This document shows positions 45,322 through 64,000 of a stretch of 64,000 nucleotides of DNA, piece by piece (positions within the stretch are counted from its first letter, which is position 1; every line of letters starts with the position of its first letter). The DNA lies in assembly GCA_900542065.1 (NCBI GenBank), contig UQLU01000001.1:105967-169966 (forward strand), written 5' to 3'. The stretch comes from an uncultured Eggerthella sp. (GTDB taxonomy: Bacteria > Actinomycetota > Coriobacteriia > Coriobacteriales > Eggerthellaceae). The notes below the pieces were generated by a model. That model made no database searches. It saw nothing but the letters and a program-made list of their open reading frames with translations, and was not told the DNA's origin. The position numbers and the translations under genes were made by a program.

Positions 45322-46149
45322 ATGGTTTCTTTGCATGATAAGGAATTGCGTTTACGAACGCTATTACGTTCATATAGTAAGCTCGCCATAGCCTTTTCGG
45401 GTGGAGTGGATTCAACGTTATTGTTGTCACTTGCTGCTGAAGAGCTTCCAGGTAGCGTTATTGCGGTTACATCACGTGTTCCCATGACCTCGGCAAAAGA
45501 ATTCGAGGAAGCAAAACTATTTTGTGAAGAACAAGAGGTTAACCAACTTATCTGTACGCCTGATGTACTATCTCTTGATCAAGTTAAAATGAACAGTCCA
45601 AAGCGTTGCTATTATTGCAAAACCATGCTGTTTTTCTCTATGAAGGAAGCTGCTGCTGAAAACGGCTATTCCATTATTGCTGATGGAACTAATGTCGATG
45701 ATTTAGCGGATTATCGTCCTGGTATGAAAGCAATTAAAGAACTGGGTGTCGTGAGTCCTTTTTTGGAAGCAGGTTTTACTAAAAAAGATATTCGTGATCT
45801 TTCACTGCAACGTTCACTTTCAACTTGGAATAAACAATCTAATGCCTGTTTGGCAACACGTATTCCCTACGGGCAGGAATTGTCCTACGATTTACTCTCA
45901 AGAATCGATCAGGCAGAAGAATTGTTACATATCTTAGGTTTTACGAATGTGCGCTTGCGTGTTCATAATGATGTTGCGCGTATAGAGATAGGGCTCGATC
46001 AATTCATAAAGCTACTCGACGATAGCGTGCGTGAATCGATAATCGAGCAGGTAAAGGATCTTGGTTTTAGCTATATTACGCTTGACTTAGAAGGATTTAG
46101 AACAGGTAGCATGAATACTGAAGTTTTAGGAGCTCTTAGTGAAAAATAA
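45322..46149 (+). CDS. LarE-family / TIGR00268 PP-loop ATP pyrophosphatase (sacrificial sulfur transferase family)
   Basis: PP-loop motif AFSGGVDSTLLL with conserved Cys residues further downstream. Sits immediately upstream of mnmA. Confidence 0.7.
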   Translation: MVSLHDKELRLRTLLRSYSKLAIAFSGGVDSTLLLSLAAEELPGSVIAVTSRVPMTSAKEFEEAKLFCEEQEVNQLICTPDVLSLDQVKMNSPKRCYYCKTMLFFSMKEAAAENGYSIIADGTNVDDLADYRPGMKAIKELGVVSPFLEAGFTKKDIRDLSLQRSLSTWNKQSNACLATRIPYGQELSYDLLSRIDQAEELLHILGFTNVRLRVHNDVARIEIGLDQFIKLLDDSVRESIIEQVKDLGFSYITLDLEGFRTGSMNTEVLGALSEK

Positions 46150-47230
46150 AGAGCGGGTACTTTGCGCTATGAGTGGTGGTGTTGATAGTTCTGTTGCAGC
46201 ACGACTTCTTTTGGATGCAGGCTATGAAGTGATTGGTGTTACGATGGTTCTTTATGACGAGAACTATCATGAAGATACGCTTGAGGAACAAGATTTCCTT
46301 ACATTGTTTCCTGAAGTTCGAGATGCGCGCAGTGTTGCGAATACCCTTGACATTGAACATGTTGTTGTTGATTATCGAGATCTGTTCAACAACAAAGTTG
46401 TTAACCCTTTTTGTCAGGCGTATTTAGGAGGTCTTACTCCTAATCCGTGTGTTGAATGCAATAAGTATTTGAAATTTGGAGCGCTTCATGATCTGCGTCG
46501 TAAATTAGATTGTGATTATTTGGCCACGGGGCATTATGCTCAGATTCGCTTCAATGAAACCACTCGAACTTACGAGCTCTGTAAGGGCTTGGATCCTCGC
46601 AAAGATCAAAGCTATGTTCTGTATCATTTACAACAAGATGATCTTGCTCATACTTTGTTGCCTCTCGGTGGATTATCTAAAAATGAAACTCGTGTTATAG
46701 CCGAACATGCCGGATTTACGAATGCTCAGAAGGAAGAAAGCCAAGATATCTGTTTTATTCCCGATGGAGACTATGCCTCTTTTATAGAAAGCTATTCAAA
46801 ATGTAATCCTGCGTCAGGTCCAATTGTTGATAAGCAAGGAATTGTTCTTGGTAGCCATAAGGGCTTGATGCATTACACCATTGGTCAGCGAAAGGGTTTA
46901 GGTGTTGCAGTAGGCGAACCCTTATTTGTTATTAGGAAAGAGGGCGAATCAAACACGCTTGTGGTTGGCAGGGAATCGGAAACAGGTGTTTGTCGTATTG
47001 TGGCAGATAAGGTATCGATTCCTTCAAATGATGATTTTTCGAAAGCGATATCGGTCGAAATAAAGATAAATTATCGTGCTCGGTTGCGCCAGGGTAGTGC
47101 ACAGATAAATGGCAGCACTTTGGAAATCGTATTTAATGAACCTATTCGTGGTGCTGCGCCTGGACAAGCGGTGGTTTTATACCAGGGAGATCGCGTTGTC
47201 GCGGGCGGAACGATTGTTTCTTACGAATAA
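46139..47230 (+). CDS. mnmA: tRNA-specific 2-thiouridylase
   Basis: PP-loop motif VLCAMSGGVDSSVAARLL, with a catalytic Cys in NPCVECN and conserved C-terminal domains. Confidence 0.9.
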   Translation: MKNKERVLCAMSGGVDSSVAARLLLDAGYEVIGVTMVLYDENYHEDTLEEQDFLTLFPEVRDARSVANTLDIEHVVVDYRDLFNNKVVNPFCQAYLGGLTPNPCVECNKYLKFGALHDLRRKLDCDYLATGHYAQIRFNETTRTYELCKGLDPRKDQSYVLYHLQQDDLAHTLLPLGGLSKNETRVIAEHAGFTNAQKEESQDICFIPDGDYASFIESYSKCNPASGPIVDKQGIVLGSHKGLMHYTIGQRKGLGVAVGEPLFVIRKEGESNTLVVGRESETGVCRIVADKVSIPSNDDFSKAISVEIKINYRARLRQGSAQINGSTLEIVFNEPIRGAAPGQAVVLYQGDRVVAGGTIVSYE

Positions 47231-47232
47231 CT

Positions 47233-47271
47233 AAGAATGCCCCGAGTGAAAATTCGAGGCATTCTTTTAAA
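47233..47271. terminator. Bidirectional terminator between mnmA and the LuxR gene
   Basis: AAGAATGCC...GGCATTCTT stem flanked by A- and T-runs. Confidence 0.5.
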
Positions 47272-47367
47272 AACATGATGCAATTAATGTCCGTAGAAAT
47301 TAATTACTTTTAAGTACTACTGAGTCGAATCATCTTTTCGCATATTGAGGTATTCCAAAAGTTCACT

Positions 47368-47844
47368 TCATTTATGGATTCCTACCTTGTCATAAATATG
47401 GCGTATGTGGGTGTTGACCGTATGGGGTGATATGAAAAGTTTATTGGAGATGCCATTAGCGGTGTTGCCTTTAGCAATAAGTTTAAGAATTTCTGCTTCA
47501 CGTTCAGATAATACAAATTCACTTGCTACTTCATTACATATTTCATCTATTTCTGTAGGCTTAACAGGGGCGCTGGTAAGATCGATAATACTTTGTTCTC
47601 GTTTGGTGATAGGAATCAACAAGAAGGCTAGTAAACAGATACCAAGTACTGCAAGCGGATCCGTAGCAACTTGTGCCAGTGAAGGTGTCATCTCGAAAAT
47701 TAACGCAATACCATTACCAATAACTATGCCGAATCGAGCCGATACTACCGATAAGGTAAACCGGTAGCGGGGGAGAAGAATCCTTTTTGCATGAGGATTC
47801 CGAAATACATAATTAGTGATATTTCGATAAGCGATGAGATGCAC
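47368..47844 (-). CDS. Small membrane-anchored LuxR-family transcriptional regulator
   Basis: C-terminal LuxR HTH (SEREAEILKLIAKGNTANGISNKLFISPHTVNTHIRHIYDKVG) and an N-terminal hydrophobic segment. The upstream frame closes at a stop at 47923-47925 with no earlier start, so the GTG at 47844 is the start. Confidence 0.7.
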   Translation of the reverse strand: MHLIAYRNITNYVFRNPHAKRILLPRYRFTLSVVSARFGIVIGNGIALIFEMTPSLAQVATDPLAVLGICLLAFLLIPITKREQSIIDLTSAPVKPTEIDEICNEVASEFVLSEREAEILKLIAKGNTANGISNKLFISPHTVNTHIRHIYDKVGIHK

Positions 47845-48022
47845 AACGCTCCAATAAAGGAAACGATATACAGGTCTGATGTCAGAATAAAAGCAGCTAA
47901 ACAGGCTATTCCGACGAGCAAATTAAGGAACTTCTTGCTGCTGGCGTAGTTAAAGAAAGCTAATCATTTTCGTAAGCCCTCAAACGTTGTTCCCCCTCCC
48001 GCGTATGATGGGCTGGTTTCAT

Positions 48023-48051
48023 CCCCCTCTGGCTCCCTTTCCAGAGGGGGG
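48023..48051 (+). promoter_or_regulatory. GC-rich hairpin (CCCCCTCTGG-N8-CCAGAGGGGGG) in the leader upstream of the caiC-like gene
   Basis: Read directly. Additional C tracts at 47992-48000 and G tracts at 48055-48070 flank it. Confidence 0.35.
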
Positions 48052-48337
48052 ATATAGGGGGGGTAAAGGGAAATTAATGTGAGTTGTGACTTATTTCATT
48101 GGTGAAATTCAACGAAATTTTCATTCGGTTGGTGTCGCTTTGGTTTCACATCTGCTTGTAGCTTCGTTTTCTTTGATAAAAACCCACATAGTCTCTCTCC
48201 TCTTCTTTTTTCGGAATTCTTTGGTTGCATTCCTATGTGGGTTTCTATCAGGGATAACAAAAGGGGATCGTTCAACTTTTTGCAAAAGGGGATTTCAGCA
48301 AAGTTGAACTACCTATTCTTCGGAGGAGGAAACGAAG

Positions 48338-49954
48338 ATGACTGATATCGTAGGCAATGAAACGCTTCGTGATTTATGGCAAAGCGTCGTCAGCCGCAGG
48401 GGTGATCGTTCGTTTTTAATATTTCATAATCGTATTGGGGATATTTTTGAATATACCTATTCAGAATTCGATCAAGATGTAAATCGTATTGCAAACGTGT
48501 TCTTGTCGCTTGATATCAAGAAGGGCGATCATGTTGCTTTGCAGCTGCATAGTTCACCCGAATTCTTAATGTGCTTATTTGGGCTGGCTAAGATTGGCGC
48601 TATTGTCGTTCCTGTTAACGAGCAGTATTTAGCTGATGAGGCTGAATATATCTTACGTACTTCTGGTGCGGTATGCGCGGTTACTGAACCTTTGTTCTTT
48701 GAAACTTACGAAGAACTATTACAGCGTGGTTTGTATTTTCCTAAGGGCTTATTGGTTGCTCGTGCGGGAAGCGATTCTTCAGAATCAGATATTGATTTTT
48801 CTCAGTTCTATACAAAGCCAGGAGAAGAAACAGATGGCGTTCAATCCATTTATGACTTCTGGGATATGCGTTGCAAAGAATCCACTGAGCTGCGTGAATA
48901 TGTTGAACTAAATTCTATGGATCCTTGCCAGATTATTTATACCTCTGGCACGACTTCTCGTCCAAAGGGTGTCGTAGTTACTCATGCCAACATGGTCTTT
49001 TCTGGTCTATATGGCGACTGGAAAGTTTCGCTGCGCGGTTCCGATCGCGTGCTTAGTTCTATGCCCGCATGTCATTCTAACTTCCAGCTAGCGGCGCTTA
49101 TGCCCGTAATTACTGCTGGTGCCACCATAATTATTGTTGAGAAGTATTCAGCCCGTCGTTTTTGGAGGCAGGTGCAACACTATCGGGCTACGGTTATTCA
49201 GTGTGTTGCAATGATGCTGCGTACGTTGATGCTCCAGCCAGTTTCTGACCATGAACAAAAGCATCACGTTCGTGAAGTGCTCTACTTTATTTCCGTTACC
49301 GATGCGGAGAAAGAGGCATTTGAAAAACGCTTCAACGTAAAAATTATGAATACCTATGGTTCTACCGAATCCATTGGTTGGGCACTTACTGATCCTCCCG
49401 TTGGAAAACGAAATTGGCCTTCAGTTGGACGCGCGGGGCTTGGATATGAAGTACGTATCGCTGATGTGAATGACAAAGAGCTTCCTCATGGTGAAGTAGG
49501 CGAAATTCAAATTATGGGTGTTCGTGGACGCTCGATAATGTTGGAGTGTTTCAACAATCCTGAAGCAACCAAAGATACCTTTAGTACTGATGGGTGGCTT
49601 AAAACAGGGGATCAGGGTTATCAGGACGATAACGGTTGGTTTTTCTTTGTCGATCGCAAATCGAACATGGTTAAGCGTGCGGGAGAAAACATATCTACAA
49701 CTGAAATCGAAGAGATACTTGAAGAGCATCCCTATATTTCTGAAGCCGCTGTTATCGGCGTCGATGATCCTATTCGAGATCAAGCAATAAAGGCATTTGT
49801 GTTGCCTTTAGATAAGAGCAAGGTAACGGTTGAGGAACTAAAGACGTACTGTGAAAGTAAGATGGCTAAATTTAAAGTACCGTCTTATTTCGAGATCGTT
49901 GATGAATTCCCCCGTACTTGCAGTCTCAAGATTGAAAAGAAGTTACTCAAGTAA
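48338..49954 (+). CDS. CaiC-like acyl-CoA ligase (crotonobetaine/carnitine-CoA ligase family; ANL superfamily)
   Basis: 538 aa. AMP-binding motif IYTSGTTSRPKGVVVTH. It also shares long blocks with E. coli CaiC as I recall it (FGLAKIGAIVVPVN, KYSARRFWRQVQHYRATVIQCVAMMLRTLMLQP, MAKFKVPSYFEIVDEFPR). RBS GGAGGAGGA. Confidence 0.7.
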   Translation: MTDIVGNETLRDLWQSVVSRRGDRSFLIFHNRIGDIFEYTYSEFDQDVNRIANVFLSLDIKKGDHVALQLHSSPEFLMCLFGLAKIGAIVVPVNEQYLADEAEYILRTSGAVCAVTEPLFFETYEELLQRGLYFPKGLLVARAGSDSSESDIDFSQFYTKPGEETDGVQSIYDFWDMRCKESTELREYVELNSMDPCQIIYTSGTTSRPKGVVVTHANMVFSGLYGDWKVSLRGSDRVLSSMPACHSNFQLAALMPVITAGATIIIVEKYSARRFWRQVQHYRATVIQCVAMMLRTLMLQPVSDHEQKHHVREVLYFISVTDAEKEAFEKRFNVKIMNTYGSTESIGWALTDPPVGKRNWPSVGRAGLGYEVRIADVNDKELPHGEVGEIQIMGVRGRSIMLECFNNPEATKDTFSTDGWLKTGDQGYQDDNGWFFFVDRKSNMVKRAGENISTTEIEEILEEHPYISEAAVIGVDDPIRDQAIKAFVLPLDKSKVTVEELKTYCESKMAKFKVPSYFEIVDEFPRTCSLKIEKKLLK

Positions 49955-50019
49955 TTGCACGTACCTTTGTAACTCTCCTTATTTATTGAGAACGCATCCG
50001 CAGAGGAAAGGTTACCTAA

Positions 50020-50891
50020 TGACGATCAAAACAGATATTGTGGGCAAAGAATTTGGTCCGTTTGTGCGCGATTATACCTTTAAGGATTTAGAGATTTGTG
50101 CACTTGGCTGCAATGCTGGCTATGACGGTAAAACTGATTTGGAATACATCAATGAAGGCGATGCTAAAGATCCACAGCTTAAAGTGCTGCCGATTTTTGG
50201 TGTACCTCTAACGGTTAATGAAGAGATGACTCGTACCTTGGACTATGGCTACGATTATTCAGGTTCTCTTCATAATGGCTTTGAAATTCGCCTCCATGCG
50301 CCCTTCAAGATGAACGATCATATTGAGACGTTTGTAACTCAAGCTGCGCTCTACGATCGCGGTGAAGGTCGCGGATGTCTTTCAAAACAGACAGCTAGAA
50401 GCTATAGCGCAGATGGTACGCATCTTTGTACCGTTGAGACATGGGATGTGAGTATCTACGATGGTGGTTGGGGAGGACCAAAACCTCCACGTGATATAGT
50501 AGAGATACCTGATCGTGCACCAGATAAGCTAGTTACGGAAACTATGCCGTACAACATGCCATTAATCTATCGTTTGATGGGTGACTGGCATCAGCAGCAT
50601 ATCGATTGGTCTTATACCGAGCAAACAGGTCTTGATCGACCCATTGCACATGGGGTTAGTCTTGGCGGATTTACTATGCGCCATATCATTTCTAGCTGGT
50701 TCCCAGGCGAACCTGAGCGCATGACTCGCTTTAAAACGCGTATCGCTTCTCCAGTGATACCTGGACAAGCGTTGACCACTCGTATGTGGCAAGTAGGCGA
50801 AAAAGAAATCCGTTTTCAGCTGGTTGATTCTGATGCCGATCAAACAGGAGCAAAACCACATTTGAATTACGGCATATGCGAATGGGACTAG
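50020..50891 (+). CDS. Double-hotdog MaoC-like (R)-specific enoyl-CoA hydratase/dehydratase
   Basis: About 290 aa from ATG 50020 with a GAGGAAAGG RBS. The C-terminal hotdog carries a hydratase-2 motif variant (YRLMGDWHQQHIDWSYTEQTGLDRPIAHG), and the N-terminal hotdog appears non-catalytic. Confidence 0.65.
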
Positions 50892-50906
50892 GACTAGGTG
50901 AGATTT

Positions 50907-52316
50907 ATGAGGCAGCATCTTAAAACATTAGCAAAGACGGTTACTACTCCTAAGGTTGTTGTAGAAGCTGTTGGCGATGGGAGTGTTACTCGTTCCATTA
51001 AGCATGCTGCTCGTAAAACTATTGACGATGTTGCAATGACGCCGTTTCTTCGTAAGATCACGTTCTTTTCCAGTGGGGGTGCCTTTTTAGAGGGGTATGC
51101 TCTATCGTTAATTGGTGTTGCACTTACTCAAATTACTCCATTATTTGAATTAGATTCATTCTGGAGCGCTGCTATTGGCGCTTCAGTTTTTCTCGGTATT
51201 TTAGTCGGCGCTATTTTAGGCGGTTATCTTACTGACTTAATTGGACGTCGTAAGATGTTCATTATCGACATGATTGCTATCGGCGTCGTGTCAATTCTTT
51301 CGATGTTTTCTACCGAGCCTTTGCATCTAGTTTTGGCGCGTTTCCTTATTGGCTTTTTCGTTGCCGCTGATTATCCTATCTCAACCGCTATGATCACCGA
51401 ATTTACTTCTAAACGTTATCGTGCCATTGCAATGGGTATGGTTTCTGCTTCATGGTACTTCGGTGCAACTGCTGCTGCCTTTGTAGGGTTTGCCTTATTC
51501 CCGATGGATGATGGCTGGAAGTGGATGCTTGGAAGCGCTGCTATTCCTTGTTTAATATTGCTTATCGGTCGTCATGATATTCCTGAGTCTCCCTTATGGC
51601 TTCGTGCTAAAGGAAGGTTAGAGGAAGCTCGTGCTGTTATGGATCGCGTCTATGGCGAAGATGTTGACTTCAATGATGAAGAGCAGGTCGGACGCACCAG
51701 CATGGCTCAAATTTTCAAGGGTGGTTATTTTAAACGAGTTGTCTTTGTAGGATTGCTGATTCTTTGTCAAGTTGTTCCGATGTATGCAATTTACACCTTT
51801 GGTCCTGACATCATGACTGCATTTGGTTTGGGCGAGGGTCGTGACTCAATCTTGGGAGAAGCAGCGGTTAGTTTATTCTTCCTAATTGGCACATTTCCTG
51901 CAATGTTTTGGCTGAACTCTATCGGACGTCGTCCTTTATTGATTGGCTCGCTTGCTTTTATGGCGATTGGTTTAATTATTCTTGGTGTATTCCCTGCAGC
52001 TCCCGTAATCGTCATTATTCTTGCTTTTGGTCTGTATGCATTCTTTAGTGGTGGACCTGGCATTTTGCAGTGGTTGTATCCTAACGAGCTTTTCCCAACA
52101 TCGGTTCGCGCTTCAGCGGTAGGAATTGCTATTTCTATTTCACGCGTGGGTACTATTGTTTCAACTTACGGAACACCGCTTATGCTTGAACAGTTTGGCG
52201 TCGGTCCAACGATGCTTGTTGCTGCAGGTCTTGTTGTGCTTGGGCTGGTGCTTTCTATCTTTATGGCTCCTGAAACAAGAGGCAAATCTTTGGCAGAAAC
52301 AAGCAAAATCCACTAA
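50907..52316 (+). CDS. MFS transporter of the metabolite:H+ symporter / sugar-porter type (ProP/KgtP-like)
   Basis: GRRKMFIIDM and PESPLWL motifs, 12 predicted TMs. ATG 50907 is preceded by AGGTGA. It starts 16 nt after the hydratase stop. Confidence 0.7.
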   Translation: MRQHLKTLAKTVTTPKVVVEAVGDGSVTRSIKHAARKTIDDVAMTPFLRKITFFSSGGAFLEGYALSLIGVALTQITPLFELDSFWSAAIGASVFLGILVGAILGGYLTDLIGRRKMFIIDMIAIGVVSILSMFSTEPLHLVLARFLIGFFVAADYPISTAMITEFTSKRYRAIAMGMVSASWYFGATAAAFVGFALFPMDDGWKWMLGSAAIPCLILLIGRHDIPESPLWLRAKGRLEEARAVMDRVYGEDVDFNDEEQVGRTSMAQIFKGGYFKRVVFVGLLILCQVVPMYAIYTFGPDIMTAFGLGEGRDSILGEAAVSLFFLIGTFPAMFWLNSIGRRPLLIGSLAFMAIGLIILGVFPAAPVIVIILAFGLYAFFSGGPGILQWLYPNELFPTSVRASAVGIAISISRVGTIVSTYGTPLMLEQFGVGPTMLVAAGLVVLGLVLSIFMAPETRGKSLAETSKIH

Positions 52317-52780: not shown

Positions 52781-52820
52781 AAAAGACGCCTAAGCTATGT
52801 AAGCTTAGGCGTCGTATTTT
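52781..52820. terminator. Strong bidirectional-looking hairpin (12-bp stem GACGCCTAAGCT / AGCTTAGGCGTC) with flanking A and T runs, inside the gene-free gap
   Basis: Read directly. It lies 165 bp downstream of the caiD-like stop on the minus strand and ~465 bp downstream of the MFS gene on the plus strand. Confidence 0.45.
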
Positions 52821-62986: not shown

Positions 62987-64000
62987 GTGTTATATCAACC
63001 CGAAATCGAAACGATGGGTCGAGATGAATTAGAACAACTTCAGCTCGAACGTCTTAAGGCTTTAGTTAAGCGTGTATCGGAAACAATCCCATTTTATAAA
63101 GAATCATTCGCTAAAGCGGGTTTAAGCGCCGATGATATTACCTGCTTGGATGATCTTGCTAAATTTCCTTTCACCACTAAACAAGATATGCGTGATGCGT
63201 ATCCTTTTGAAATGTTTGCAGTGCCTAAAAGTGAAGTCGCGCGCATTCATTGTTCATCCGGCACTACGGGTACCGCAACGGTAGTTGGCTACACCCAAGC
63301 TGATCTTGATCGTTGGGGCGATTGTTTTGCACGCTTTTTATATGCTGCTAATTGCGGAAAAGAAGCAACTATTCAAGTTGCTTACGGCTACGGTTTGTTT
63401 ACTGGTGGTTTAGGCGCTCACTATGGCGGTGAACGTGCTGGTTGTACGGTACTGCCTATGTCTACTGGCAATACGAAGCGTCAAGTTCGCCTTATGCATG
63501 ATTTTGAAGTGGATGCTTTGTGTTGTACTCCTTCTTATGCGCTCAATATTGCCGATGTTGCTATAGAAGAAGGTTTTAATCCCGCTAAAGATTTCCATAT
63601 TCATGCAGCTGTCTTGGGTGCTGAGCCCTGTTCTGAATCAATGCGTAAAGAAATTCAGGATAAATTAGGCGTGCAGGTGTATGACATTTATGGCCTTTCA
63701 GAAATTATGGGTCCTGGTGTGGCTTGTGAATGCGAAATGCAGCATGGTCTTCATGTATGTGAAGATCAGTTCATTATCGAAATCGTTGATCCAAAAACCC
63801 TTCAACCTGTTCCTGATGGTGAATGGGGCGAAGTGGTATTTACGACGCTTTGCAAGGACTGTTCTCCTTTAGTTCGCTATCGCACCCGTGATATCTCTCG
63901 CATCTTGCCAGGCGAGTGTTCTTGTGGTCGTACGTTCCGCCGCATGGATCGTATTGCTGGTCGAACTGACGACATGATGATCCTTCGTGGCGTAAATGTT
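62987..64000 (+). CDS. Phenylacetate-CoA ligase (PaaK) family adenylate-forming enzyme, 3' end outside the window
   Basis: GTG start reading MLYQPEIETMGRDELEQLQLERLKALVKRV. AMP motif region (IHCSSGTTGTATVV) and typical PaaK N-terminal architecture. The ORF is open to the window end. Confidence 0.75.
   Translation, partial: MLYQPEIETMGRDELEQLQLERLKALVKRVSETIPFYKESFAKAGLSADDITCLDDLAKFPFTTKQDMRDAYPFEMFAVPKSEVARIHCSSGTTGTATVVGYTQADLDRWGDCFARFLYAANCGKEATIQVAYGYGLFTGGLGAHYGGERAGCTVLPMSTGNTKRQVRLMHDFEVDALCCTPSYALNIADVAIEEGFNPAKDFHIHAAVLGAEPCSESMRKEIQDKLGVQVYDIYGLSEIMGPGVACECEMQHGLHVCEDQFIIEIVDPKTLQPVPDGEWGEVVFTTLCKDCSPLVRYRTRDISRILPGECSCGRTFRRMDRIAGRTDDMMILRGVNV

Follow-up and report, generated by a model that had tools for sequence, protein, structure and literature searches.

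Deletion scar and candidate structured cis-acting RNA element upstream of a CaiC-like ligase gene in an uncultured Eggerthella sp.

A stretch of 64,000 nucleotides from an uncultured Eggerthella sp. (assembly GCA_900542065.1, contig UQLU01000001.1, positions 105,967 to 169,966), in the following called the window, was investigated with regard to the region 47926-48337, which precedes a gene for a CaiC-like AMP ligase. We lean towards a reading in two layers, a deletion scar followed by an ancestral intercistronic spacer that carries a structured cis-acting RNA element. Judged by the alignments, the sequence up to position 47963 is almost certainly a deletion scar with pseudogene remnants. Comparison with orthologous loci makes it likely that the RNA structure of the spacer is conserved and selected. 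A mechanism by processing, stability or gating of the Shine-Dalgarno (SD) sequence is put forward only tentatively. The initial annotation had described the region as a divergent intergenic leader between a LuxR gene and the ligase gene. This description did not stand, as 47926-47963 is a gene remnant, the LuxR gene is a truncated pseudogene, and about 6.3 kb including the real divergent promoter have been lost. The features of the scar and of the genes behind it are as follows.

47326 to 47905, minus strand: LuxR' pseudogene, residues ~305-503 of a 515-aa transmembrane LuxR/GerE-type regulator, the 3' 40% of the gene
47904 to 47905, no strand: deletion junction, 6321 bp (L164:3262-9582) missing in comparison with L164
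47904 to 47963, plus strand: caiB' remnant, last 19 codons (GYSDEQIKELLAAGVVKES) and stop of a CaiB-like family III CoA-transferase
47964 to 48337, plus strand: ancestral caiB-caiC intercistronic spacer of 374 nt, with the proposed structured element
48338 to 49954, plus strand: CaiC-like AMP ligase, intact, with AMP-binding domains (Pfam)
50019 to 50891, plus strand: MaoC-type hydratase, intact (Pfam, gene calls)
50898 to 52316, plus strand: MFS transporter, intact (Pfam, gene calls)

Related loci or spacers that were compared with the window are designated by L-numbers. L164, a 21.6-kb contig of a CAG:338-like species, is syntenic with the window on both flanks according to the gene maps. 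Its intact order is a flavodoxin-like gene (minus strand), a QueC-like gene, mnmA, LuxR with 515 aa (minus strand), an MFS transporter, an esterase, an acyl-CoA dehydrogenase, a CaiB-like CoA-transferase, a 359-nt spacer, the ligase, MaoC, a further MFS transporter and an enoyl-CoA hydratase (minus strand). By nucleotide local alignments of window 47800-47980 with this contig the breakpoints were located at L164:3261 and L164:9583. Homology on the LuxR side extends up to 47905 and on the caiB side begins at 47904, with GG common to both. The caiB' remnant matches residues 395-413 of CaiB of L004 with 84% identity (tblastn, E 1.6e-4) and was also recovered by DNA alignment. L004 is Cryptobacterium sp. 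CAG:338, the closest intact relative, whose ligase is 92% identical to that of the window. No other caiA or caiB homology was found in the window. A caiA match at 63.9 kb was rejected as chance similarity inside a PaaK-like ligase gene, a phenylacetate-CoA ligase-like (PaaK-type) open reading frame (ORF) at 62990-64000 on the plus strand that runs off the window end. The ancestral locus would have consisted of mnmA, LuxR (minus strand), the divergent promoter, MFS, esterase, acyl-CoA dehydrogenase, CaiB-like CoA-transferase, spacer, CaiC-like ligase, MaoC and MFS. A deletion of ~6.3 kb in the window lineage would then have fused LuxR codon ~305 to caiB codon 395 and removed the native divergent promoter together with four genes.

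The same scar was found in L084, a second strain of the same species with 98.9% identity over the region. There LuxR' (L084:1500-2096) is uninterrupted, with neither frameshift nor premature stop, and the window copy (47368-47844, minus strand) is broken twice. With the intact L164 LuxR as tblastn query, two high-scoring segment pairs in different frames (77-78% identity) place the frameshift near 47757-47772. The premature stop lies at 47368-47370, and homology to the L022 LuxR runs past it (tblastn). Pfam assigns a GerE domain to residues 111-157 only of the 158-aa ORF. Both the frameshift and the nonsense codon would have arisen after the deletion, in the window strain. The LuxR' stub retains the helix-turn-helix (HTH) along with the C-terminal, hydrophobic portion of its membrane region, and it may have functioned briefly after the deletion. 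A more distant lineage, L134 (metagenome contig OCHL01000830.1, 1500-3606), lost the same part of the locus with other breakpoints. Its LuxR' comprises residues 251-348 and its caiB' residues 301-413 with a frameshift; the ligase has an internal deletion of ~residues 185-316, and MaoC and MFS are 92-95% identical to those of the window. Compared with each other, the losses in L134 and in the window look like recurrent or progressive decay of the locus.

The genes downstream of the scar were compared between the window and L084. The ratios of non-synonymous to synonymous substitution rates (dN/dS) were 0.176 for the ligase, 0.114 for MaoC, 0.172 for MFS and 0.145 for mnmA. By these ratios the ligase, MaoC and MFS genes are still under purifying selection after the deletion, and hence are still expressed from somewhere. 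The survival of these genes would mean that the function of the module, and its promoter, are independent of the lost caiA/caiB half.

The second layer begins with the spacer, in which five hairpins, H1 to H5, and a repeated motif were distinguished.

47975 to 48014, plus strand: H1, bipartite stem, loop CCCCCUCCC at 47992-48000
48022 to 48051, plus strand: H2, perfect 10-bp hairpin (U)CCCCCUCUGG / CCAGAGGGGG(G), 5' arm anti-SD-like, 3' arm SD-like
48166 to 48258, plus strand: H3, 24 bp (RNAfold), arms 48166-48191 and 48233-48258, 41-nt pyrimidine-rich loop
48258 to 48268 and 48283 to 48293, plus strand: two exact copies of CAAAAGGGGAU, SD-like and G-rich, the second in the H4 loop
48270 to 48309, plus strand: H4, perfect 10-bp stem (15 bp with inner extension), loop displaying AAAAGGGGAU
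48317 to 48340, plus strand: H5, helix of UCUUCG with CGAAGA around the SD GGAGGAGGA (48322-48331), adjoining the ATG (48338-48340)

All six sequence features named in the initial annotation were recovered by reading the sequence and with a repeat finder, none displaced by more than 1 nt. The C tracts are CCCCCTCCC at 47992-48000 and CCCCCT at 48023-48028, and the G tracts occupy 48046-48051 (48045 is an A), 48057-48063 and 48068-48070. The hairpin described between them is perfect over 10 bp, 48023-48032 with 48041-48050. Allowing up to three mismatches, this hairpin pattern occurred once in the window and in none of 100 shuffles. The 12-bp core 48180-48191/48233-48244 with its 41-nt pyrimidine-rich loop lies inside an imperfect inverted repeat of greater length, 48163-48191/48233-48261, in which the two arms of 29 nt each show 83% complementarity. 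The perfect 10-bp stem 48270-48279/48300-48309 encloses 20 nt. TCTTCG at 48317-48322 and CGAAGA at 48333-48338 flank the SD, with the ATG at 48338. Furthermore, an exact 11-nt direct repeat that had not been listed, CAAAAGGGGAT, was detected at 48258-48268 and 48283-48293. Folding was better than that of shuffled controls: the minimum free energy (MFE) of 47926-48345 (420 nt) was -129.7 kcal/mol against a mean of -115.8 (z -2.49), and none of 100 dinucleotide shuffles was as good.

In about 60 related genome loci the ligase gene is directly preceded by a co-oriented gene for a CaiB-like CoA-transferase of ~410 aa, with a gap of 29-382 nt; this linkage rises to 108 loci once metagenome contigs are included. 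In blastn the spacer of the window had almost no primary similarity to other spacers, except for H3 and parts of H1 and H2 in the nearest clade. A common hairpin architecture was found in the spacers of all relatives with at least 71% ligase identity. The hairpins return at the same positions, on differing stem sequences, in ~15 Eggerthellaceae lineages. The helices H2, H3, H4 and H5, to which the four stems of the initial annotation belong, recur at equivalent positions of orthologous spacers with covarying stems, and the compensatory changes go beyond those of the controls. Chance stems are thus discounted. Stem recurrence, covariation and the use of G.U pairs on the ligase strand support the idea of a structured RNA that acts in cis ahead of the ligase.

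H1 begins 12 nt behind the caiB stop. In folds of 9 sequences from ~8 lineages its loop was always CCCCCUC(CC), on differing stems such as ACG/CGU, CACGC/GCGUG, CUGAUGU/ACAUCAG, CCAAU/AUUGG and CCGAUC/GGUCGG. H2 is a perfect hairpin of 10-15 bp in all close relatives, with outer pairs of (A/U)CCCCUCC with GGAGGGG(A/U) and covarying inner pairs (GG/CC, UGG/CCA, AGGC/GCCU, CCG/CGG, UUCGGA/UCUGAA, UUGAGC/GCUCGA). One clade has changed from C-G to U-A throughout, and in L084 an A in place of G at 48051 replaces a G.U pair by A-U. Strains of the E. lenta type carry a spacer of the L010/L013 type. In L010-type spacers the 5' arm of H2 (window 48022-48032) reads GAUCCCCUCC, and the 3' arm GGAGGGGAUC resembles a full-length SD. 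The 5' arm also resembles the conserved 3' end of 16S rRNA (GAUCACCUCC). Because of these likenesses H2 has the look of an SD/anti-SD duplex copied within one molecule.

H3 is the best-conserved part of the spacer, being 85-88% identical to L004 and L134. A helix of 18-27 bp was predicted at the H3 position in 16 of 17 lineages folded (15 of 16 besides the window), formed by unrelated sequences; L029 has short hairpins only. The pyrimidine tract of the H3 loop was considered as a specific anti-SD and rejected, the duplex energy with the SD being no better than that of shuffled loops in 8 of 10 lineages. H4 displays a GGGG(A/U) loop on unrelated stems in about 11 of 14 lineages, including L004, L134, L088, L005, L007, L009, L021, L020, L015 and L023, and two copies of the G-rich SD-like motif are likewise present in L004 and L134. 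For H5 there is an alternative fold, in which UUCUUC pairs with GAGGAA and occludes the SD. Helices that bracket or occlude the SD were found in other clades as well, with compensatory changes. The spacers of L025, L030 and L072 (Adlercreutzia, Paraeggerthella and Eggerthella sinensis) are without the CCCCUCC/GGAGGGG hairpin H2 and consist of two short GC hairpins and, behind them, a helix of 19-28 bp, which stands before the ligase SD with the common sequence CGCACGAUGCCGCC...GGCGGCAUCGUGCG. By their layout they may represent the same architecture in a second sequence family.

A covariance model (CM) of H1 and H2 gave one match per locus at 30 loci, always in the spacer (E 1e-12 to 1e-24). 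Plain MAFFT alignment with RNAalifold across clades had set the H1 and H2 stems off by one column and returned the alternative C/G pairing; hence a CM-guided alignment was used. Its covariation score was 0.286 compared with 0.146 in shuffles (0 of 500 as high), slid controls reaching at most 0.09. The number of double-change cells was 45 compared with 18.4 in shuffles (again 0 of 500). The RNAalifold runs within single clades used plain MAFFT alignments, made without regard to structure. For the window clade (alignment A5) H3 was returned with 21 pairs, 98.4% of the cells paired, two double changes and six one-sided changes that keep pairing. For the L015 clade H3 had 25 pairs and five double changes, and H4 and a CCUUC:GGGGG helix pairing the SD were obtained in addition. 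The L009 clade gave H3 with 19 pairs and at least six double changes, together with H5. Among the spacers of 24 lineages, other genera included, the mean folding z-score was -4.75, and most lineages lay 4-8 standard deviations below the shuffles.

The element is confined to its place. Within the 64-kb window and ~566 kb of related loci, matches to the models R1 (H2) and R2 fell exclusively in the spacer, and the arm motifs are unique in the window. CCCCTCC occurs at 3.65 per kb in spacers and 0.01 per kb elsewhere, CCCCCTC at 1.47 compared with 0.03 per kb outside, and GGGGAT at 2.9 compared with 0.23 per kb outside.

The MFE z-scores were uninformative on the strand (sense -4.75, antisense -4.40). 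In contrast, the one-sided changes in H3 of the window clade keep G.U pairs on the plus strand; read from the minus strand, these would be C.A. In H3 of the L015 clade five G.U pairs are conserved whose G lies in the 5' arm, and the share of G.U among helix pairs is 12.1% on the plus strand and 8.1% on the minus strand. This asymmetry and the co-oriented operon position favour an RNA on the ligase (plus) strand.

Several findings weigh against the two-layer reading. The z-scores of the window clade are weak, -1.1 to -2.5. Alignment A8 was built with the CM, which fits it to the structure, and no more than 80% of its cells are paired. Much of H2 and of the loop motifs is invariant and hence carries no covariation information. 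About half of the lineages lack H1 and the G-run behind H2, so that no one switch model suits them all. The spacer measures only 29-60 nt in L057, L032, L036, L039 and L043, and this shrinkage in several lineages makes the element dispensable for the pathway. Between the window and L084 the spacer has 5 differences in 374 nt and the pseudogene 9 in ~600 nt; there is no excess conservation, and selection on the structure after the deletion therefore cannot be shown. No promoter from which the window's ligase might now be transcribed emerged from the scans, which returned only non-significant hexamers in LuxR'. Co-transcription, processing sites and strand are all deduced from sequence, and it is helix length that suggests an involvement of RNase III. 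The short gaps were also viewed by themselves: at L057:3327-3357, and in L032, L036, L039 and L043, 29-43 nt separate caiB and ligase, and one of these ligases is 78% identical to that of the window. Judged by this distribution, the structured spacer has repeatedly been lost, or repeatedly was never gained.

On the two-layer reading the element would act in cis and post-transcriptionally, setting the expression of ligase, MaoC and MFS independently of the proximal genes. H3, which has the size of an RNase III substrate, would be a determinant of processing or stability; about two helical turns (at least 20 bp) are expected for an RNase III site, and H3 reaches 24 bp in the window, the range being 18-27 bp for 15 of 16 others. 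H2, GC-rich and without a tail, would shield the upstream (proximal) fragment at its 3' end. Competition of C-rich segments (H1 loop, H2 5' arm, UUCUUC) with G-rich ones (H2 3' arm, H4 loop, SD) would gate the access of ribosomes to the ligase start, with H4 displaying an SD-like motif and H5 together with the pyrimidine tract holding the true SD. In the window organism, where the operon is broken, the element may be only a relic.

The initial annotation had called the C and G tracts terminator/antiterminator-like. Competing C/G pairings do exist, as RNAalifold on one alignment indicated. The comparison with a terminator failed, H2 being followed by GAUAUAGG and not by a U-tract. H2 is not regarded as a terminator because no T-run follows it, while a T-tailed terminator closes the operon at 52785-52813. 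The latter, which separates the convergent genes for MFS and enoyl-CoA hydratase, is a canonical bidirectional terminator, a palindromic hairpin of 12 perfect base pairs flanked on either side by T-runs. In a terminator scan no intrinsic terminator was found on the plus strand in 47200-48500 or in the L164 spacer, and H2 lacks the direct U-tract by which intrinsic terminators and attenuators are recognised.

The pairing alternatives lead to a different explanation, a riboregulator responsive to a ligand or protein, in which two C-rich segments (H1 loop and H2 5' arm) compete for G-rich partners (H2 3' arm, G-run, the GGGGAU loop of H4 and the SD) and a signal opens or closes the ligase SD. The signal might be a pathway metabolite, an RNA-binding protein or a ribosome terminating at the caiB stop. 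We consider this unlikely. Equally improbable is its more specific form, in which the caiB-caiC element is an undescribed, Eggerthellaceae-specific class of cis riboregulator, a switch sensing a metabolite, an RNA-binding protein or upstream translation. In this form the mimic of an SD/anti-SD duplex in H2, with the displayed C-rich (H1) and SD-like (H4) motifs, would be the switch, and would control translation or processing of a CoA-ligase module in gut Actinobacteria that metabolise xenobiotics or dietary compounds. Mutually exclusive pairings are real: on alignment A6 RNAalifold preferred the pairing of the H1-loop C-run with the G-rich 3' arm of H2, the partners being invariant and H1 not universal. 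In L004 GGGGA can be either displayed in a loop or paired with upstream UCCCUU. Enrichment of the C-rich and G-rich motifs in spacers ranges from 12- to 365-fold, and helices occluding the SD are predicted in several clades. Against these points stand the missing Rfam match in window and relatives, the lack of H1 in roughly half of those lineages where H2-H5 are retained, and the dispensability of the spacer in some lineages; in the window, moreover, the caiB frame that would bring the terminating ribosome is gone. There is no conserved multi-helix junction or internal-loop core, and the invariant nucleotides are just SD/anti-SD-like. The riboswitch proposed in the initial annotation is thereby disfavoured as well. 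No Rfam riboswitch or leader matched, and nothing like a conserved ligand-binding core was seen: the helices covary, and the conserved, displayed nucleotides are merely C- or G-runs, SD/anti-SD-like, in hairpin loops or arms.

A similarly low probability is given to two separate transcription units, with H1 and H2 as tail-less terminators of MFS-esterase-caiA-caiB, an internal promoter in the spacer, and H3-H5 as the 5' untranslated region of ligase-MaoC-MFS. The ligase, MaoC and MFS genes are selected despite the loss of the promoter, so a transcription start must exist at some point ahead of 48338. In low-GC members the linker from H2 to H3 is rich in AT, and the window adds an AT-rich insert of 68 nt there; L134, which also lost the promoter, is without the insert and has a broken ligase. 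On the other hand, the gap between H2 and H3 is just 10-25 nt in most relatives and leaves no room for a promoter, and H2 has no U-tract although canonical terminators exist in the genome. A consensus scan of the plus strand for sigma-70-like promoters detected none in 47926-48337 or in the L164 spacer; this result is weak, since even the true divergent promoter region of L164 escaped the scan. Hexamer pairs inside LuxR' on the plus strand could equally drive read-through. These pairs, TTAACA-17-GATAAT (10/12) at 47561-47589 and TTTGCA-16-CATAAT (9/12) at 47786-47813, are not statistically enriched. By their match to the consensus they are candidate replacement promoters of the ligase module.

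There is less probability still that the hairpins have no present function and are neutral by-products, for example of repeated local duplication of the SD region and its complement, or relics that decay in the window since its operon was broken. The loss of the spacer in some lineages, the weak z-scores of the window clade and a spacer not conserved beyond the pseudogene between window and L084 would agree with this. The SD-like motifs look duplicated, as in the exact 11-nt repeat, and the H2 3' arm and the H4 loop resemble the real SD of relatives. In opposition to this, many compensatory changes keep the stems across ~15 lineages and several genera, and in most lineages the spacers fold 4-8 standard deviations better than shuffles. 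Furthermore, H3 with its loop is 85-88% identical between the window and L004/L134 and the rest of the spacer is unalignable; the ligase identity to L164, which is of the L004 type, is 78.5%.

The initial annotation had also suggested binding sites for the adjacent LuxR regulator. LuxR/GerE proteins are generally known to bind palindromes. Transmembrane LuxR-type activators of Coriobacteriia with 10-12 transmembrane helices, DadR, HcdR and CadR, control neighbouring metabolic operons in E. lenta (PMC9734109). The LuxR of intact relatives agrees with these in its C-terminal GerE HTH, its hydrophobic N-terminus and its position divergent from a metabolic operon. It has 515 aa and a membrane-like N-terminal region. 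In contrast to DadR, HcdR and CadR, the window keeps only the last ~40% of its regulator, further broken, and the structured region is neither its promoter nor its operator region. As the adjacent LuxR is a 5'-truncated pseudogene with frameshift and stop, binding sites for it are without basis here. In intact relatives the LuxR gene lies ~5.5 kb upstream and the divergent promoter region is elsewhere than the spacer; in the window that promoter region is deleted. Against inverted repeats acting as DNA operators of this or another transcription factor it also counts that the stems keep pairing and change in sequence, the H4 stem being entirely different in the relative with the 92% identical ligase. 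Arms of 18-27 bp and loops of 4-108 nt are unlike operators, and the G.U asymmetry favours RNA. Operators are accordingly regarded as very unlikely.

Two further features are lineage-specific, and the weakest alternative concerns the first of them.

48049 to 48070, plus strand: G-quadruplex motif G3N5G3N1G3N4G3, containing the G7 run 48057-48063, not conserved
48060 to 48130, plus strand: AT-rich insert of ~68 nt, holding the direct repeats of the initial annotation and two small hairpins

That the G-runs form a functional G-quadruplex has a next to negligible probability: the canonical motif with four G3 tracts is present in the window only, its first G tract belongs to the conserved H2 stem, in the same-species strain L084 an A at 48051 and a G7 run reduced to five G destroy it and leave three G3 tracts, and no counterpart exists in L004, L134 or L088, the closest intact relatives such as L004 having no G-run after H2. 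The quadruplex suggested initially was therefore confirmed as a motif and not as a conserved one. The direct repeats fared alike: TTTCATTGGTG at 48094-48104 and TTTTCATTCGGTTGGTG at 48118-48134 are present and lie within the insert, which is peculiar to the window lineage, stands opposite a gap in L004 and had no blastn match in any other locus. By this distribution G-quadruplex and direct repeats are incidental and lineage-specific.

Coding potential was also considered for the spacer. The ORFs 47987-48082 and 48086-48307 and ORFs on the minus strand cover lineage-specific or unalignable sequence, and the 73-aa ORF that was searched gave no Pfam match. The scan for tRNA and transfer-messenger RNA genes detected none. 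Multiple copies, as expected for repetitive extragenic palindromic (REP) sequences or miniature inverted-repeat transposable elements, were not found within the window and the ~566 kb of related loci.

Identical copies of the ligase gene were found in metagenome-assembled contigs of ENA and NCBI, the host being an uncultured low-GC member of the Eggerthellaceae. Homologues in Eggerthella are annotated as crotonobetaine/carnitine-CoA ligase, and the literature search gave no paper linking Eggerthella with crotonobetaine/CoA-ligase clusters. Between genomes, the ligase, MaoC and MFS genes (window 48338-52316) are far more alike than the adjacent mnmA (46139-47230), in comparison with both L164 and L134. 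The nucleotide identity of window and L164 is 78.5% for the ligase and ~66% for mnmA; window and L134 share 94.7% amino acid identity for MFS and 60% for mnmA. This gap suggests recombination or horizontal exchange of the module, or an unusually strong constraint. In GCA_000431675.1 (L002:3774-4890), an NCBI assembly of the window's genome, mnmA is split into two high-scoring segment pairs in tblastn and called as an 89-aa C-terminal piece only, probably by an assembly indel, since mnmA is intact in the ENA assembly L001.

In annotation, what was read as a "LuxR gene" and a "divergent leader" ought to be entered as pseudogene remnants left by a deletion of 6.3 kb. The locus itself is a remnant in decay. 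Its conserved spacer element qualifies as a reasonable candidate for a new family of regulatory RNAs in a gut lineage of medical relevance. Eggerthellaceae carry out many conversions of drugs, dietary compounds and host metabolites in the human gut. The known regulation of their pathways is almost entirely transcriptional, via transmembrane LuxR activators (PMC9734109). If true, a conserved, covarying RNA in a CoA-dependent operon would be a first handle on post-transcriptional control in this family, and control at the RNA level is directly testable with the existing genetic tools for E. lenta.

The search for known RNA classes proposed by the initial annotation gave no family match in the region, in the whole window or in the spacers of relatives. 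With Rfam 15 only eukaryotic microRNA and small nucleolar RNA models were hit in 47300-48700 at E<=10, with 13-24 bits compared with gathering scores of 38-245. The whole window gave 0 matches, 14 related loci gave none in their spacers, and the L010 and L015 spacers at E<=1 gave none or microRNA-like hairpin noise. A few kb downstream of the ligase module of one relative an S-adenosylmethionine (SAM) riboswitch was detected (RF00162, L020:9298-9388, minus strand, 46.9 bits), which is unrelated to the spacer element.

Two known systems share features with the displayed C-rich and G-rich motifs. The 6C RNA of Actinobacteria is a small RNA with two hairpins, whose C-run loops pair with G-rich targets. 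The spacer element is likewise actinobacterial, and the H1 loop CCCCCUCCC displays at least six C-dominated pyrimidines complementary to G-rich SD-like sequences. In contrast to 6C RNA, it had no cmscan match (E<=10 in the window, E<=1 in relatives), it is encoded in cis within an operon, and its single C-loop is missing in half of the lineages. Platforms that sequester the SD include translational riboswitches and RNA thermometers such as ROSE and fourU. Comparable with these, upstream pyrimidines can pair with the SD (UUCUUC/GAGGAA in the window, CCUUC/GGGGG in the L015 clade), and SD and start lie in or near a small helix. Unlike them, the spacer has no recognised aptamer or thermometer motif, and the local helices are weak with 5-7 bp.

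A closer likeness concerns hairpins inside operons. Stabiliser hairpins that give differential expression of cistrons are known from Rhodobacter puf, the E. coli malE-malF REP and papBA. These are stable hairpins without U-tail between cistrons, to which H2 as a putative protector of a 3' end would correspond. REP sequences are repeated genome-wide, whereas H2 occurs at one position in 64 kb and ~566 kb, and the element of the spacer is larger, with five helices. In the E. coli rpsO-pnp spacer a hairpin after rpsO is followed by a long helix of the pnp leader that is cut by RNase III, and sites in phage T7 early mRNA are also processed by this enzyme. The spacer of the window reads similarly in sequence, with upstream stop, short GC hairpin, long (at least ~20 bp) imperfect helix and next SD on what would be one mRNA, and the 18-27 bp of H3 would suit a nuclease specific for double strands. 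It differs from rpsO-pnp in having no sequence relation, no U-tail like that of the rpsO terminator behind H2, C- and G-rich loops (H1, H4) without counterpart, and a cleavage that is inferred here. By these comparisons, the element is best called a family-specific structured cis-acting mRNA element, absent from Rfam 15, whose layout comes closest to regions of the rpsO-pnp type and to stabiliser hairpins.

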